Assembly: GCA_035515795.1 (NCBI GenBank) | Contig: DATJAY010000028.1 | Coordinates: 5,296 to 69,295, forward strand | DNA length: 64,000 nucleotides | Source of the DNA: Candidatus Acidiferrales bacterium | GTDB taxonomy: Bacteria > Bacteroidota > Ignavibacteria > Kryptoniales > JAKASW01 | Reading direction: 5' to 3' | Part shown: positions 56,481 through 61,893 of the stretch, piece by piece | How the letters are laid out: each line of letters opens with the position of its first letter | Position numbering within the stretch: the first letter of the stretch is position 1 | The notes under the pieces: model-generated | Database searches by the model: none | The model's input: only the letters and a program-made list of their open reading frames with translations | What the model was told of the DNA's origin: nothing | Made by a program: the position numbers and the translations under genes

Positions 56481-56701
56481 ACTCTCTCCTCACTATGCAA
56501 GTGATTGAAACAACTTTGTGCAAAAATCAGATTGGATTATGATAGTGACACACCCACTCTGACATGGATATTGAATTTCGTGCGTGGAATCTCCAAGCGC
56601 TGGCCTGCTCTTTTCGTCGTTGAACATCGATTATGTTGAGCCACATGTGAGGTGCTAAATCCGAAATACCGACTGCCACCTAACAGGATGCTTCCACTAC
56701 T

Positions 56702-57094
56702 CTATGCCATTGTGGCCGCTTTGCGAGGCGCTGAAGGCGACGGCTGCTTGAACACTACCGTCGTGAAGAACTCGATAATCAAACCGAACACCCCATTCAT
56801 GATGGCATTGCCCACCGGCACCGGTCCAGGTCCCATGTGCATGAAAAGGAAGTAGGAGAAGATCGACCCGACCAGCCATCCCATGATGGCACCGTTCCAG
56901 GCCCATCCTAACCTCAGCCCGGAGATAGCGATGGTAAAGCCCATGATGCCCCTGTTCATCAGCACCCAAATCAAATTGACAGGCGTAAACTTCAGGAAGC
57001 CGGCAGAGAATGCCGCAGACGCGCAGACCACACCCATAGCCAGGCCGAAAAGCGTGGCAATCACAATCCGTTTCATCGATACAACCGTGTTCAT
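56702..57094 (-). CDS. Small 4-TM membrane protein, unknown function
   Basis: I chose the ATG at 57094 (MNTVVSMKRIVIATLFGLAMGVV...) because AAGGAG lies 8 nt upstream. The longer 57247 start adds a non-membrane, Cys/Arg-rich leader. It is divergent from the MerR operon. Confidence 0.55.
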   Translation of the reverse strand: MNTVVSMKRIVIATLFGLAMGVVCASAAFSAGFLKFTPVNLIWVLMNRGIMGFTIAISGLRLGWAWNGAIMGWLVGSIFSYFLFMHMGPGPVPVGNAIMNGVFGLIIEFFTTVVFKQPSPSAPRKAATMA

Positions 57095-57437
57095 GTTTTG
57101 GTCTCCTTTTGCGAAATCTTGATTAAGTAAGAATGAAAAGCGAGTGATCCATGATAGGGACATACCTCGAGGTGCAACAAAGTCTCTGCAGCATGTTCTC
57201 TCATTTTCAGCTCCCTTCAAAGTTGTGACTCGGACGTAGAATGACATGACTTATCCCCACAGGAATAAGGCTCGTCATCTTTGTGACCGTACGGAGACCG
57301 CTCCTCGAATGTTTCGATTTACATTTAAAACGGGTTTCTTGCGGCGAAGAGTCTCTCGCATCTTTCCATCTGTGACTTTATTCCTCCTGATCTCACCCAA
57401 ATCCCTCAAAATACCGCATTTCTACCGGCATAACACT

Positions 57438-57453
57438 TGTATTTATAAATACA
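57438..57453. promoter_or_regulatory. Perfect 16-bp palindrome, candidate MerR-type operator
   Basis: TGTATTTATAAATACA, ending 24 nt upstream of the MerR-family ATG at 57478. Confidence 0.4.
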
Positions 57454-57477
57454 GGTCCCGAAATCGGGATCCTTGAT

Positions 57478-57936
57478 ATGCAAAGTCAGGAAACGCTCAC
57501 ACATTCCATCGGCGAAGTTGCAGAGATGCTGAAGATCTCTGTCGAGACCATAAGGCTCTACGAGCGGCGCGGGCTTACGCTCACGGTCAAAGACGATAAT
57601 AACCAGCGAACCTTTTCCGAGTCGGACATCGAGAGAATAAAATGCATTCGCACCGCGATCAACGACCACAAGATTTCTATCGAAGGGATCCGCCGCATTC
57701 AGTCGCTCGTTCCCTGCTGGGAACACATCAAATGTCCTGACGAGCAGCGCGTGAAATGTCCTGCATACCTCCGCAGCGACGCTGGCTGCTGGACGTATCG
57801 AGACAAGCAGGAAAATTGTTCATCACGGGATTGCCGGAGATGCAAGGTGTACCAGCTTTCCGGCGACTGCGAGAAAATCAAATCGCTTATTCACCACGAT
57901 GTAATGTCTTCTCTTAATTTAACAGACGACGAGTAG
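57478..57936 (+). CDS. MerR-family transcriptional regulator with an 8-Cys C-terminal domain
   Basis: HTH region SIGEVAEMLKISVETIRLYERRGL...RTFSESDIERIKCI. C-terminal PCWEHIKCPDEQRVKCPAYLRSDAGCWTYRDKQENCSSRDCRRCKVYQLSGDC. Confidence 0.85.
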   Translation: MQSQETLTHSIGEVAEMLKISVETIRLYERRGLTLTVKDDNNQRTFSESDIERIKCIRTAINDHKISIEGIRRIQSLVPCWEHIKCPDEQRVKCPAYLRSDAGCWTYRDKQENCSSRDCRRCKVYQLSGDCEKIKSLIHHDVMSSLNLTDDE

Positions 57937-57939
57937 CCT

Positions 57940-59508
57940 ATGAAAAAAATCTTTCTTCCGCTTTTCGTGCTGGTGGTCTTTGCCGTAATGGTTTTCACCG
58001 CGCTGCACAAGAACAGCGCAGATAATCCACCGCTCACAGTTTTGAAACAGCAATACTCTGTCAAGTCGACACCTTCGGTCGATCATTCATTGTTCCCCGA
58101 GCTCAAGAAAAAGTTCAGCAGCCCGCAGCAGGTGACCGCGGCATGCATATCCTGCCACAACGGTCGGGCCCAGGAAGTGATGCACTCGACCCACTGGAAC
58201 TGGACGCGGCTCGAATATATCGAGGGGAAGGGCATCAGGTCGATCGGGAAAAGAAATATCCTGAACAATTTCTGCATCGGCATTGCGGGGAGCGAGCAAA
58301 GCTGCACGAGGTGCCACGCCGGATACGGATATGCTAATACGGATTCTTATTTCAAAGACTCGCTCAACGTCGATTGTCTCGCGTGCCATGATAACAGCGG
58401 CACCTACATGAAGGCAAGCGAAAAAGCCGGTATGCCTGACAGTTCAGTCAACTTGAGCTTCGTGGCACAGCATGTCGGTAAACCGACGCGCACAAATTGC
58501 GGCGTCTGTCATTTCTTCGGCGGAGGGGGCAACAATGTGAAACACGGCGATCTCGAGCAGGCACTCTTCGATCCGACTCGCGACGTGGACGTCCACATGG
58601 CGACGGACGGGCTCGACATGCAATGTGTCGATTGCCATACCGCAAAGAAACACCAGATGTTAGGCAAAATGTATTCGGTATCATCGATGAACCGCAATCG
58701 CGTACAATGCGAGAGTTGTCATGGCACATTACCGCACAACGACGATGTCTTGAACGAGCACACAGTCAAAGTCGCCTGCCAGACGTGTCACATACCGGTT
58801 TTTGCGAAGGTGAATCCTACAAAAATTTATTGGGATTGGTCCACGGCCGGCAAACTGAAAGACGGCAAAGCTTATGTAGACGAAGATTCCAACGGCACCG
58901 ACAGCTATATGTCCATCAAAGGATCATTCAAATGGGGAAGAATGTTGAAGCCTGATTATGTCTGGTTTAACGGTACGGCATCCCACTATCTACTCGGCGA
59001 TACATTCAATGCGTCAAAGCCGCTTGAGGTAAATAAGCTGTACGGTAGTTATGACGATCCCGATTCAAAGATTTATCCCGTGAAAATTCATCGCGGGAAA
59101 CAAATCTACGACGTCGGATACAATTACCTTATTCAACCGAAGCTATACTCCGCAAAGAAAGGTGACGGCGGATTTTGGGCCGACTTCAACTGGCAGCGCG
59201 CCGCTGAAGAAGGGATGAAGCAGGTCAACCTGTCGTACAGTGGGAATTACGGATTCGCCCAGACGGAAATGTATTGGCCGGTCAATCACATGGTCTCGTC
59301 TAAAGAGCAAGCAGTCCAGTGTAACGAATGCCATACGCGCGACAACGGCCGTCTCGCGAGCCTTGATGGATTCTATCTCCCCGGCAGAGATTACAATCCG
59401 GTCGTTGAACACTTCGGCGCCGGACTGATTCTCCTCACTCTCGTTGGAGTTGTCCTGCATGGCGGTGGAAGGATTATGATGAGCCGAAAAGGAAAGGGAG
59501 GGAACTGA
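57940..59508 (+). CDS. Octaheme c-type cytochrome, tetrathionate-reductase (OTR)-family-like, membrane-anchored
   Basis: Exactly eight CxxCH motifs: CISCH, CTRCH, CLACH, CGVCH, CVDCH, CESCH, CQTCH, CNECH. N-terminal signal or anchor, and a C-terminal hydrophobic helix FGAGLILLTLVGVVL. Confidence 0.8.
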   Translation: MKKIFLPLFVLVVFAVMVFTALHKNSADNPPLTVLKQQYSVKSTPSVDHSLFPELKKKFSSPQQVTAACISCHNGRAQEVMHSTHWNWTRLEYIEGKGIRSIGKRNILNNFCIGIAGSEQSCTRCHAGYGYANTDSYFKDSLNVDCLACHDNSGTYMKASEKAGMPDSSVNLSFVAQHVGKPTRTNCGVCHFFGGGGNNVKHGDLEQALFDPTRDVDVHMATDGLDMQCVDCHTAKKHQMLGKMYSVSSMNRNRVQCESCHGTLPHNDDVLNEHTVKVACQTCHIPVFAKVNPTKIYWDWSTAGKLKDGKAYVDEDSNGTDSYMSIKGSFKWGRMLKPDYVWFNGTASHYLLGDTFNASKPLEVNKLYGSYDDPDSKIYPVKIHRGKQIYDVGYNYLIQPKLYSAKKGDGGFWADFNWQRAAEEGMKQVNLSYSGNYGFAQTEMYWPVNHMVSSKEQAVQCNECHTRDNGRLASLDGFYLPGRDYNPVVEHFGAGLILLTLVGVVLHGGGRIMMSRKGKGGN

Positions 59509-59509
59509 A

Positions 59510-60172
59510 ATGAAAAAAGAATACATCTACAAAAGGTTCGAACGCTTCTGGCATTGGACCCAGGCTGCACTCATCATATTTCTCGGTGTCACCGGATTCG
59601 AGATTCATGGGTCGATAAAGTTCTTTGGATACGACCAGGCAGTGAGATACCACGACATTGCTGCGTGGACCTTCCTTATCCTGATTGCATTTGCAATCTT
59701 CTGGCATTTCACGACCGGAGAATGGAAACAATACCTCCCTACCTGGAAAAACATGCGCGCGCAAGCCGAGTACTATGTCTTCGGAATCTTCAACAATGCG
59801 CCTCATCCGACAAAGAAGACTGTCCTGAGCAAATTAAATCCGTTACAGAAGCTCGTCTACGCTGGCTTGAAGGTGCTCGTGATTCCGGTAATGGTCCTCA
59901 GCGGGCTTGTATATATGTTCTACCGGTACCCCCAACGTTATGAAGTTCTCGCACTGAATATCAGCGGACTCCGGGTCGTTGCCGTGATTCACACGATCGG
60001 AGCATTCCTCCTCGTGGCGTTTTTCATCGCTCACTTATATCTAATCACGACCGGGCAGACGGTTACGTCAAACCTCAAAGCGATGATAACCGGATACGAA
60101 GATTTGCCGAAAGAACATGAGAATAAAACGGGTGAAATTATTTCAGAAAAATTTGGTGAGGTGACGAAATGA
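59510..60172 (+). CDS. Membrane cytochrome b subunit (PF01292-type, quinol-interacting)
   Basis: RFERFWHWTQAALIIFLGVTGFEIHG, HDIAAWTFLILIAFAIFWHF and VIHTIGAFLLVAFFIAHLY. Four to five TM helices with conserved His residues. SD AGGGAGGG upstream. Confidence 0.8.
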   Translation: MKKEYIYKRFERFWHWTQAALIIFLGVTGFEIHGSIKFFGYDQAVRYHDIAAWTFLILIAFAIFWHFTTGEWKQYLPTWKNMRAQAEYYVFGIFNNAPHPTKKTVLSKLNPLQKLVYAGLKVLVIPVMVLSGLVYMFYRYPQRYEVLALNISGLRVVAVIHTIGAFLLVAFFIAHLYLITTGQTVTSNLKAMITGYEDLPKEHENKTGEIISEKFGEVTK

Positions 60173-60690
60173 ATATAAAATATATGAACCCATATCTTGC
60201 CGGATTTTTTTTGGGCCTCGTATTGCTGGCAACGATATTTATTACCGGACGAGGTCTCGGAGCGAGCGGTGCGATCAAAGATGCCGTCATCGCAATCGCA
60301 GACGGCATCGCACCGAAACACACCGAATCATCTCCGTTCTTCGGGACGTATGTAGGTTCCGGAAAAGACAGCCCGCTTAAATCATGGCTCTTCTTCGAAA
60401 TCGTCGGCGTGGTGATAGGAGGATTCATTTCCGGATTGATCTCCGACCGGTTGAAGATCGTCACGGAGGCCGGCCCAAAAGTGAAGCCGAAAGTTCGCTG
60501 GATCTTTGCAGCGATAGGCGGCGCTTTGTTCGGCATCGGGGCACAGTTCGCGCGCGGCTGCACTAGCGGCGCGGCGTTGAGCGGAATGGCTGTCCTCTCG
60601 ACCGCAGGGTTCATAACGATGATCGCAATCTTCGGAACCGGGTATGCCGTTGCATTCTTCGGACGAAAGTTGTGGATACAGAAGGATTGA
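60169..60690 (+). CDS. YeeE/YedE family sulfur-compound transporter, half-size subunit 1
   Basis: GRGLGASGA and GAQFARGCTSGAALSG motifs. 173 aa, four TM helices. ATGA overlap with the upstream gene. Confidence 0.8.
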   Translation: MNIKYMNPYLAGFFLGLVLLATIFITGRGLGASGAIKDAVIAIADGIAPKHTESSPFFGTYVGSGKDSPLKSWLFFEIVGVVIGGFISGLISDRLKIVTEAGPKVKPKVRWIFAAIGGALFGIGAQFARGCTSGAALSGMAVLSTAGFITMIAIFGTGYAVAFFGRKLWIQKD

Positions 60691-60699
60691 GGTGAAACC

Positions 60700-61893
60700 A
60701 TGGGACCATTCGTACCTGATTTAATTTCCGACCAGCTGAATCTGGTCGTTGCTCTCATGCTCGGAATTGCATTCGGCTTCGTACTGGAACAAGCTGGATT
60801 TTCTTCATCCAGAAAATTAGCCGGCGTATTTTATGGATACGATTTTGCAGTGCTGCGCGTGTTCTTTACCGCCGCGGTGACGGCGGCAAGCGGTGTCATC
60901 TTGCTCGGCTATTTCGGACTTCTTGACACCGATGTCATTTATGTTAATCCGACATGGTTACTCCCCGCACTCGTGGGCGGAGCTATAATGGGTGTAGGAT
61001 TTATATTGGGCGGCTACTGCCCCGGCACGAGCGTCACCGCAGCGGCAATCGGTAAAGTCGACGGGATGTTTTTCATCGGCGGCGGACTTCTAGGAGTATT
61101 CGCGTTCGGTGAGCTATTTCCATTATACGATAAATTTTTCGACTCGACGTTTCTCGGCCCGACAAAAATCTTCGATTCACTCGGCGTATCACAGGGATTG
61201 TTTACGTTCATATTGATCGCGGTTGCGGTCGGTGCATTTGCAATTACGACAATTATCGAGAAAAGAGTAAACAAAACTGCGGCGCCTTCGCTGCAATTCA
61301 AACCGATGAAACATTTTGCGGCGGGGTTCGTGATACTCGCGCTTGGCATTCTGTTTGTCTTCCTGCCCGATCGGAAGACAAGCCTCATTGAAAAAGTCAC
61401 GTCTCAAAATTATATCGCGACTCATCCGACAGCGACAATGGAGGTCGATGAGCTTGCTTTTCGCATTGTCGATCAGGAACCCAATATCCGCATCATAGAC
61501 ATTCGTCAGCCCGCGGAATACGCCAAGCTCGCCTTACCCGGCTCGAGCAATATTCAAATGAACGACTTTTTCAGCAAGGATGCGGTCTCATCGTTCTCAC
61601 AGCGACATATGAAAAAGGTTATCGTCGGTGATAGTGAGGCGGAGGAACGCACTGCTTGTTTACTTCTGCATGAACTCGGCTACGAAAACCTTTCGGTATT
61701 GAAAGGCGGGTTTGATGAATTCAACAAGACGATCCTGAATCCGTCGATGTTTGTCCCCACCGGAACACGATGGGATGCCGATGTGAAGGAGTTCCGCGAG
61801 AATGCACGAATTGAGATACTAAAAATGATCGACGCCGACAAAGACAAGGCACCGCGAGAAATCAAGAAGAAAAAAATTCAGGGTGGGTGCTGA
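60700..61893 (+). CDS. YeeE/YedE half-size subunit 2 fused to a rhodanese-homology domain and a Lys-rich tail ending in GGC
   Basis: LEQAGFSSSRKLAG and GGYCPGTSVTAAAIG, then two extra TM helices. Rhodanese-like IRIIDIRQPAEY...KKVIVGDSEAEERTACLLLHELGYENLSVLKGGFDEF. Tail ...DKDKAPREIKKKKIQGGC. Confidence 0.8.
   Translation: MGPFVPDLISDQLNLVVALMLGIAFGFVLEQAGFSSSRKLAGVFYGYDFAVLRVFFTAAVTAASGVILLGYFGLLDTDVIYVNPTWLLPALVGGAIMGVGFILGGYCPGTSVTAAAIGKVDGMFFIGGGLLGVFAFGELFPLYDKFFDSTFLGPTKIFDSLGVSQGLFTFILIAVAVGAFAITTIIEKRVNKTAAPSLQFKPMKHFAAGFVILALGILFVFLPDRKTSLIEKVTSQNYIATHPTATMEVDELAFRIVDQEPNIRIIDIRQPAEYAKLALPGSSNIQMNDFFSKDAVSSFSQRHMKKVIVGDSEAEERTACLLLHELGYENLSVLKGGFDEFNKTILNPSMFVPTGTRWDADVKEFRENARIEILKMIDADKDKAPREIKKKKIQGGC

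Follow-up and report, generated by a model that had tools for sequence, protein, structure and literature searches.

SoxR, a [2Fe-2S] redox sensor and activator of the MerR family, has a long coiled coil and a short C-terminal motif of four cysteines, and the sigma-70 promoter that it activates has a long spacer. HspR and GlnR/TnrA have a winged helix-turn-helix followed by only a short helix, lack a cysteine-rich domain and are controlled through protein partners, TnrA by glutamine synthetase and HspR by DnaK. The gene considered here lies in a stretch of 64,000 nucleotides from a Candidatus Acidiferrales bacterium (contig DATJAY010000028.1, positions 5,296 to 69,295; hereafter the window), in which an open reading frame at 57478–57936 on the plus strand encodes a regulator of 152 amino acids that joins a MerR-type head to a cysteine-rich tail (MerR-CW). 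As in HspR and GlnR/TnrA, only a short helix follows its winged helix-turn-helix, but unlike them it has a cysteine-rich domain. With SoxR it shares the joining of a MerR head to a cysteine-based module, but the coiled coil, the four-cysteine motif and the long-spacer sigma-70 promoter of SoxR were not seen at the window protein or its locus. We propose that the protein is a short, coiled-coil-less regulator of the MerR superfamily, similar to HspR, GlnR and TnrA in its DNA-binding part, with an effector end of seven to eight cysteines derived from the two-CW domain; taken as a whole, this is our best explanation, and we give it an even chance of being right. The protein is probably a sulfur or redox sensor of an undescribed kind.

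A preliminary description of the sequence had reported a cysteine-rich part fused to a MerR DNA-binding domain, and both halves of that report are borne out. The winged helix-turn-helix occupies residues 10–75 (57505–57702, plus strand) and is matched by Pfam MerR_1 with 57.7 bits (E = 1.2e-15) and by Pfam MerR with 38.2 bits (PF13411/PF00376); from the helices of the model, the recognition helix is predicted at residues 22–30. The two-CW-like domain, a putative sensor delimited by homolog alignments and profile–profile comparison, extends over residues 79–131 (57712–57870, plus strand). Residues 80–131, which correspond exactly to 57715–57870, have the sequence reported earlier, with eight cysteines (80, 86, 94, 104, 114, 119, 122 and 131) and two Cys-Trp pairs (80–81 and 104–105) separated by 24 residues. 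The last element, defined by the model secondary structure and by invariant columns, is a C-terminal helix (residues 131–147; 57868–57918, plus strand) in which I134, K135 and L137 are conserved among 25 close homologs and which may serve in dimerisation or packing.

A word-index search gave 164 proteins with E <= 0.001, and among the matches listed the identity was 57–100% with 86–100% coverage of the query; Ignavibacteriae, Kryptoniota and Bacteroidota are the names attached to some of these homologs. When the cluster representatives were searched exhaustively, 791 matched with E <= 0.001 and 170 with E <= 1e-10, many of which span both halves of the protein at 30–55% identity. Seven cysteines (C80, C86, C94, C104, C119, C122 and C131) are invariant in the 25 close homologs, and C114 is present in at least 90% of them. 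When the comparison is widened to 45 homologs, with identities down to 27%, C80, C94, C104, C119 and C122 remain invariant, and C86, W81, W105 and Y125 are found in at least 90%. In a domain alignment of 126 sequences, 121 have C119, 118 have C122 and 116 have Y125; a regular expression demanding the first four cysteines was used to collect these sequences, so that those four are complete by construction. Since the cysteines are near-invariant in close and distant homologs alike, their pattern is not the product of chance. When 301 genomes of the phylum were searched with a profile, 32 proved to have the family, and all 32 belong to the class of the window.

An AlphaFold model of the whole protein, computed from the 45-sequence alignment, has a predicted local distance difference test score (pLDDT) of 88.7 and a predicted template-modelling score of 0.80; averaged in blocks of ten residues, the pLDDT is 91–98 over residues 11–100 and 74–91 over residues 101–150. 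After the winged helix, the model has a short helix (residues 68–75), the cysteine region with several very short helices and the final helix at 131–147, and the long coiled-coil dimerisation helix of the canonical MerR activators (MerR, CueR, SoxR and BmrR) appears to be absent. Fold searches with VIA-align gave matches to the N-terminal domain with Z scores of 8–9.4, with GlnR, SoxR (8.9), TipAL and TnrA tied at 8.7–9.4, and Foldseek against the PDB returned HiNmlR, CadR and others, again for the N-terminal domain only. HspR models are the best-scoring NCBIfam DNA-binding matches in all 45 relatives. The best NCBIfam match of the window protein itself is also to HspR (NF047375), with 44.3 bits, below the cut-off of 105; it scores 25.2 bits against the TnrA model (cut-off 140) and 29 bits against the SoxR model TIGR01950 (cut-off 116.9), which matches residues 10–79 only.

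These results bear on the comparison with SoxR that had been drawn in the preliminary description. On that comparison the protein would be a classical activator of the MerR/SoxR type, sitting on the over-long spacer of a sigma-70 promoter, between its −35 and −10 boxes, and untwisting the DNA when its cluster is oxidised. The protein does have a DNA-binding domain of the MerR family, the models of SoxR and of metal-sensing MerR proteins match its N-terminal domain weakly, and SoxR is among the tied top fold matches. The comparison nevertheless fails on three counts, namely the coiled-coil helix, which the model predicts to be missing, the SoxR score, which stays below its cut-off, and the promoter described below, which has no −35/−10 pair around the operator.

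The tail had also been likened to the two-CW domain, and the resemblance is confirmed by comparison of profiles and not by the curated model. NCBIfam NF045718 ('two-CW domain-containing protein') is a domain model of 80 positions and unknown function with a cut-off of 35 bits; the domain search with this model that had been suggested as a check gave the tail only 11.6 bits (E = 0.28). Alignment with hhalign of the tail profile (126 sequences) to a profile of canonical two-CW domains (126 sequences) gave a probability of 96.1% with an E value of 2.8e-9 and a score of 41.5 over 50 columns; the control scores were 10.6 for the reversed template and no higher than 13.4, with probabilities of at most 2.1%, for 60 column-shuffled templates. 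An independent comparison with two other alignments gave 85.8% (E = 5.4e-6), with all seven cysteines paired. The residues paired with the seven cysteines of the two-CW domain are C80, C86, C94, C104, C114, C119 and C122. The tail and NF045718 have these cysteines in the same order, starting with CWE-x3-C and continuing through CPA and a second CW to a final C-x2-C-x-[FV]Y, and the tail shows the features by which we recognised a two-CW domain, that is, seven cysteines in fixed order, two Cys-Trp pairs and a terminal C-x2-C-x-[FY]Y. The two differ in length (about 78 residues in NF045718 against about 52 in the tail, in which three loops are shorter), in the GREPGG and NGGR stretches of NF045718, which are missing from the tail, and in setting, the tail following a DNA-binding domain whereas canonical two-CW domains stand alone or join kinase or chemoreceptor domains. 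Given the two hhalign probabilities, the seven aligned cysteines and the far lower shuffled controls, the tail is, at the level of sequence profiles, a two-CW domain with three loops shortened, and we treat it as a divergent relative of that family rather than as a member in the curated sense.

Canonical two-CW domains frequently occur as proteins of about 100 residues (3167 matches), and they also form fusions with chemoreceptor, histidine-kinase, Ser/Thr-kinase/PP2C, PilZ, CheW, STAS, cyclase and rubrerythrin domains. The domain had been described earlier as lying at the N-terminus of some signalling proteins; the association with signalling domains stands, and among the 120 fused proteins listed the motif begins no later than residue 40 in 74 and lies elsewhere, often at the C-terminus of chemoreceptors, in 45, such that the position holds for only part of them. 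Since it is an add-on to many kinds of signalling output domains, the two-CW domain seems to behave as an input module. It had been said to have no established function, in agreement with a literature search on the name 'two-CW domain', which found no paper; nothing in print was found on the MerR-CW fusion or on the function of the two-CW domain. A sequence search of the PDB for a solved structure, made with one profile for the tail and one for canonical two-CW domains, gave 0 matches at E <= 10, and a search of the ESM Atlas with residues 76–152 gave no usable match.

This distribution also bears on a different role for the tail, in which the cysteines form a structural zinc module that holds the dimer together while the signal comes from a partner protein or from the sigma-54 activator alone. 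The nearest DNA-binding relatives, HspR and GlnR/TnrA, are partner-controlled, the cysteine domain takes the place of the dimerisation helix in the model, and an extra receiver domain present in eight relatives could take the signal. The parent two-CW domain, however, recurs on many signalling output domains, as is typical of input modules, and in four operator subfamilies the cysteine domain has stayed with sulfur operons (see below), so that we regard a purely structural tail as distinctly unlikely.

Several further features of canonical two-CW proteins were seen. The domain is found at the extreme C-terminus, on the cytoplasmic side, of the methyl-accepting chemotaxis proteins P0426, P0429, P0441, P0442, P0444, P0463 and P0486, and more than one copy is present in 29 of the 120 fused proteins listed. 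The genome from which the window derives also encodes a genuine stand-alone two-CW protein of 88 amino acids (76.3 bits; L001:1462–1728 on the minus strand, equivalent to G000:C25 at about 102.9 kilobases), in which Cys-Ala replaces the second Cys-Trp. Its neighbours, judged by eye, are a large membrane glycosyltransferase-like open reading frame and a small protein of the heavy-metal-associated type.

The predicted operator of the regulator is a perfect palindrome of 16 base pairs, TGTATTTATAAATACA, at 57438–57453, identified from its conservation and its uniqueness in the genome. The 4.08-Mb genome has no second copy of it, and the nearest matches elsewhere differ at three positions. We collected 46 related loci from species-representative genomes, found with the close alignment; if up to four mismatches are allowed, the palindrome occurs in 42 of the 46 upstream regions, and in about 37–40 of those 42 the ATG follows it by three nucleotides. 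In the window, an insertion of 21 nucleotides, CCCGAAATCGGGATCCTTGAT (57457–57477, plus strand), recognised from the upstream alignments, separates the operator from the ATG. This insertion is peculiar to the window and is absent from the six closest loci, where the ATG stands three nucleotides after the palindrome; it holds a small hairpin with a 4-bp loop, CCCGAAATCGGG, at 57457–57468, which was flagged as terminator-like on the minus strand. The palindrome ends in TGT...ACA, as does the TnrA/GlnR site.

The outer bases of the palindrome vary between subfamilies together with residue 23 of the recognition helix. Among 76 genes, glutamate at this position goes with TTGTAT in 28 of 30 cases, histidine with TTGA[TC]A in 14 of 15 and proline with CTG-type sites in five of seven, and glutamine goes with mixed sites. 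The variant palindromes of the paralogs stand before other sulfur enzymes. Because paralogs with another residue 23 carry matching variant palindromes, direct recognition of the palindrome is suggested, and the pairing of residue and operator fits such recognition by the regulator itself. Several genomes have more than one paralog (four in G261 and two in G189), with differing operator variants, and in one locus (L068; G289:C2, about 40.5–41.6 kilobases) two paralogs with different operator variants lie in tandem before a sulfide:quinone reductase gene.

Overlapping the upstream edge of the palindrome is a sigma-54-like promoter element, GGCAT-N5-TTGT (57427–57440, plus strand), recognised from conservation and spacing, in which GG would represent the −24 region and TTG the −12 region. 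Across 42 aligned upstream regions, the counts of conservation are 42 and 41 for the two G bases, 37 and 41 for the C and A that come next, and 41, 40 and 41 for T, T and G of the second half. The positions that mirror them across the dyad are not conserved in these regions, from which it follows that the GGCA element is not part of the palindrome. Moreover, GGCA-N6-TTG remains constant while the operator varies between subfamilies. The pattern GG[CT]A-N6-[TC]TG lies within 100 nucleotides upstream of 70 out of 75 family genes, compared with 47 of 669 other open-reading-frame starts in the same loci, and two of the five misses differ from it by one base. The spacing of GGCA-N6-TTG is that of sigma-54 promoters, and the canonical TTGC is present in some subfamilies and in locus L046. 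A published sigma-54 promoter, CGGCACGATTATTGCT, lies just upstream of its start site with the activator site centred at −101 (PMC4045070). The genome encodes rpoN (413 bits) and about 16–18 activator genes, none of them on the window contig, and has intergenic [TC]GGCA[TC]-N5-TTGCA sites elsewhere. We consider the sigma-54 reading of the promoter somewhat better than an even bet. It would place the start of transcription at a predicted 4–8 nucleotides before the ATG; as the ATG follows the palindrome by three nucleotides in most loci, transcription must start within or before the palindrome.

The same upstream region counts against a classical activator. The centre of the palindrome, TATAAAT, resembles a −10 box, but no sigma-70-like pair of hexamers was found upstream on the plus strand, let alone one with the 19–20-bp spacer in which the operators of canonical MerR activators are centred, the positions of a would-be −35 box are not conserved and the ATG, so close to the palindrome in most loci, leaves no room for a downstream −10 box. 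Sites of the MerR type would be expected between the promoter boxes, centred near −23 (PMC4045070). Together with the protein-level evidence given above, this makes a SoxR-like activator very improbable. A sigma-70 reading in which TGGCAT serves as the −35 and TATAAA as the −10 box was rejected on account of a spacer of only 13 bp. A search of 56600–57600 against Rfam gave no match, and no Bacteroidetes-type TAnnTTTG motif was seen by eye in the upstream sequences.

Two further conserved features lie upstream of the promoter element. In many of the loci L016–L054, an inverted repeat, TTC[AC]CA-N4-T[GA][AG]GAA, stands at a fixed distance of about 67 nucleotides upstream of GG, where a sigma-54 activator site would fit, and is a candidate for one; a score of at least 8 was reached in 25 of 41 loci and in 101 of 820 shuffles, with a motif that was chosen after seeing the data. 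The window (about 57340–57405) and the upstream regions of L010–L015 have two conserved blocks, (A)TGTGGCGAAG(A/C)G and TGTGACTTTATTCCTCC, about 95 and 50 nucleotides upstream of the GGCA element. The window shares both blocks with its six closest relatives; they show no conservation at the protein level and may represent an activator site or a regulatory element of another kind.

The regulator is the first gene of a five-gene operon on the plus strand. Its stop codon is three nucleotides from the start of a gene for an octaheme c-type cytochrome of the tetrathionate-reductase family (57940–59508; TIGR04315, 588 bits against a cut-off of 375; PF11783; eight CXXCH motifs), and the later gaps are 1, −4 and 9 nucleotides. 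A membrane cytochrome b follows (59510–60172; Pfam Ni_hydr_CYTB, E = 1.5e-28), whose nearest model is the PhsC type of thiosulfate reductase (NF011582, 105 bits, below the cut-off of 204). The operon continues with a half-protein of the YeeE/YedE sulfur transport type (60169–60690; Pfam Sulf_transp, E = 4.7e-17) and closes with a second YeeE/YedE half fused to a rhodanese-like domain (60700–61893; Pfam Sulf_transp and Rhodanese), the gene after 61893 being on the opposite strand. The YeeE/YedE–rhodanese fusion ends in Gly-Gly-Cys after a lysine-rich stretch.

The preliminary description had placed the regulator ahead of a respiratory cytochrome, and the related loci extend this observation into a sulfur context. 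The octaheme gene is directly downstream in 38 of the 46 related loci (three of the other eight end less than 300 nucleotides from the regulator) and all four downstream genes are present in 33, whereas the upstream genes are not conserved. Some loci carry other genes. In L052 and L054 a type III sulfide:quinone reductase is encoded downstream (660 and 651 bits, cut-off 525), accompanied in L052 by DUF1641 and DsrE-like genes; L053 has another octaheme cytochrome, in L026 genes for a methyltransferase and a peroxiredoxin are found together with a NifX-like gene, and L055 adjoins a TtrA-like molybdoenzyme that scores below its cut-off. The phylum profile search returned 29 further loci, in which the gene after the regulator encodes an octaheme cytochrome (nine), a sulfide:quinone reductase (four, all type III), a PhsA-like molybdoenzyme (13; 307–388 bits on sequences cut by the end of the locus, against a full-length cut-off of 694), a DsrE2-like protein (two; about 90 bits, below the cut-off) or an unassigned open reading frame of 95 amino acids (one). 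Thus, 28 of these 29 loci, which come from related genomes and are not independent samples, point to inorganic sulfur chemistry, and the genomic context of the family points strongly in the same direction.

Most of the controlled enzymes, namely the octaheme cytochromes and PhsA-like proteins, are anaerobic respiratory reductases, which raises the alternative of an FNR-like sensor of oxygen or general redox state, in which an oxygen-labile iron–sulfur cluster would report anoxia and so license operons of anaerobic respiration, and sulfur compounds would not be the signal. The seven conserved cysteines could hold such a cluster, and the window DNA occurs in wetland metagenomes (four DNA runs). 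Every identified target, however, is an enzyme of sulfur compounds, with no nitrate, fumarate or dimethyl sulfoxide system seen among them, and those of the sulfide:quinone reductase and DsrE2-like kinds serve to oxidise sulfide or transfer sulfur and have no part in anaerobic respiration. An FNR-like role is therefore unlikely in our estimation.

The predicted position of the operator at −12 to +1, a DNA-binding domain nearest to that of HspR and the lack of a coiled coil lead us to favour a repressor that controls itself over a SoxR-like activator. A dimer of the regulator would bind the palindrome and, as this covers the −12 to +1 stretch of the promoter, would repress its own operon. The cysteine module, probably with a metal or iron–sulfur centre or with reactive thiolates, would be modified by reactive sulfur species, for which polysulfide or persulfide, tetrathionate and related oxidants are candidates; this modification would loosen DNA binding and allow the sulfur-respiration genes to be switched on, with a separately encoded sigma-54 activator providing the positive drive. 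All identified targets act on tetrathionate, thiosulfate/polysulfide, sulfide or bound sulfur, so that the most economical signal would be reactive (sulfane) sulfur or a close oxidant. We consider this combination of a self-regulating HspR/GlnR-like repressor with a cysteine or metal sensor of reactive sulfur, at a sulfur-respiration operon, to be evenly poised between right and wrong.

A functional parallel is provided by the persulfide sensors CstR, SqrR/BigR and FisR, which control sulfide:quinone reductase and YeeE/YedE operons, with FisR being a sigma-54 activator that works at a sigma-54 promoter (PMC7315123). These are cysteine-based regulators at sulfide:quinone reductase, rhodanese and YeeE/YedE operons, and the window regulator is likewise placed. 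Their folds (CsoR, ArsR and AAA+ activator) are unrelated and none of them was found by Pfam in the window protein, which limits the likeness to a functional analogy.

A number of observations weigh against the proposed repressor or against parts of it. The preference for repression over activation comes from the position of the operator only. As regards the tail, the score against NF045718 lies below the cut-off, as given above, and the model matches only 14 of the 45 relatives at E <= 1, with a best E value of 0.0031; in fold searches with the whole model (Foldseek and VIA-align) the cysteine domain was matched by no structure, which barely tests this domain, and the domain folded alone reached a pLDDT of 54 and was not used for fold searches. 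As regards the promoter, the −12 position is T in the window group and A in many paralogs where the sigma-54 norm is C, sites with the strict sigma-54 consensus show no genome-wide excess relative to spacing controls (a point that touches the sigma-54 part in particular), an activator gene is near only two of 47 loci and the inverted repeat is absent from the window and its six closest relatives. Finally, the association between residue 23 and the operator takes no account of shared ancestry, and counts over related genomes are not independent.

A wider proposal can be made, in which the two-CW module is an undescribed but widespread cytoplasmic sensor that detects sulfane sulfur or the redox state by means of a metal–thiolate or iron–sulfur centre, and the MerR-CW proteins are the first MerR-type regulators dedicated to sigma-54 promoters, gating or assisting open-complex formation through paralog-specific operators. 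The overlap of the operator with the −12/melting region would then allow direct gating of open-complex formation, or a distortion of the DNA in the MerR style would assist it, and an operator variant of its own for each paralog would keep the tetrathionate, thiosulfate/polysulfide and sulfide operons apart. We put this forward tentatively, as a rather unlikely extension.

What is new in this family is the joining of a MerR-superfamily head to an uncharacterised sensor module in an unusual promoter setting. The known reactive-sulfur sensors (CstR, SqrR/BigR and FisR) come mostly from aerobes and pathogens, and, to our knowledge, it is largely unknown how anaerobic bacteria of sediments and wetlands change over from one to another of the tetrathionate, thiosulfate/polysulfide and sulfide pathways. 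The family offers a single type of regulator with a readable operator code for all these sulfur operons, and it gives a first point of access to the function of the two-CW domain, a part of thousands of chemoreceptors, kinases and second-messenger proteins. If the sigma-54 reading is true, a MerR-type protein would moreover act at a sigma-54 promoter, which is unusual. In PMC4045070, the paper examined from a literature search for a MerR-type repressor at a sigma-54-dependent promoter, the MerR-type and sigma-54-dependent regulators are separate.

The domain organisation of the family varies. A receiver domain lies N-terminal to the MerR-CW unit in eight relatives checked (P0196, P0197, P0202, P0215, P0218, P0229, P0240 and P0270), an OmpR-type winged helix precedes it in P0233 and a LuxR/GerE helix-turn-helix in P0232, and the matches include P0137, a protein of 623 amino acids with about eight tandem MerR-type helix-turn-helix repeats. 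The operon also varies in one locus (L033:8459–10066), where the octaheme match stops after about 218 residues and runs into the YeeE–rhodanese gene; this locus lacks the gene for cytochrome b as well as the first half of YeeE, which looks like the result of an internal deletion.

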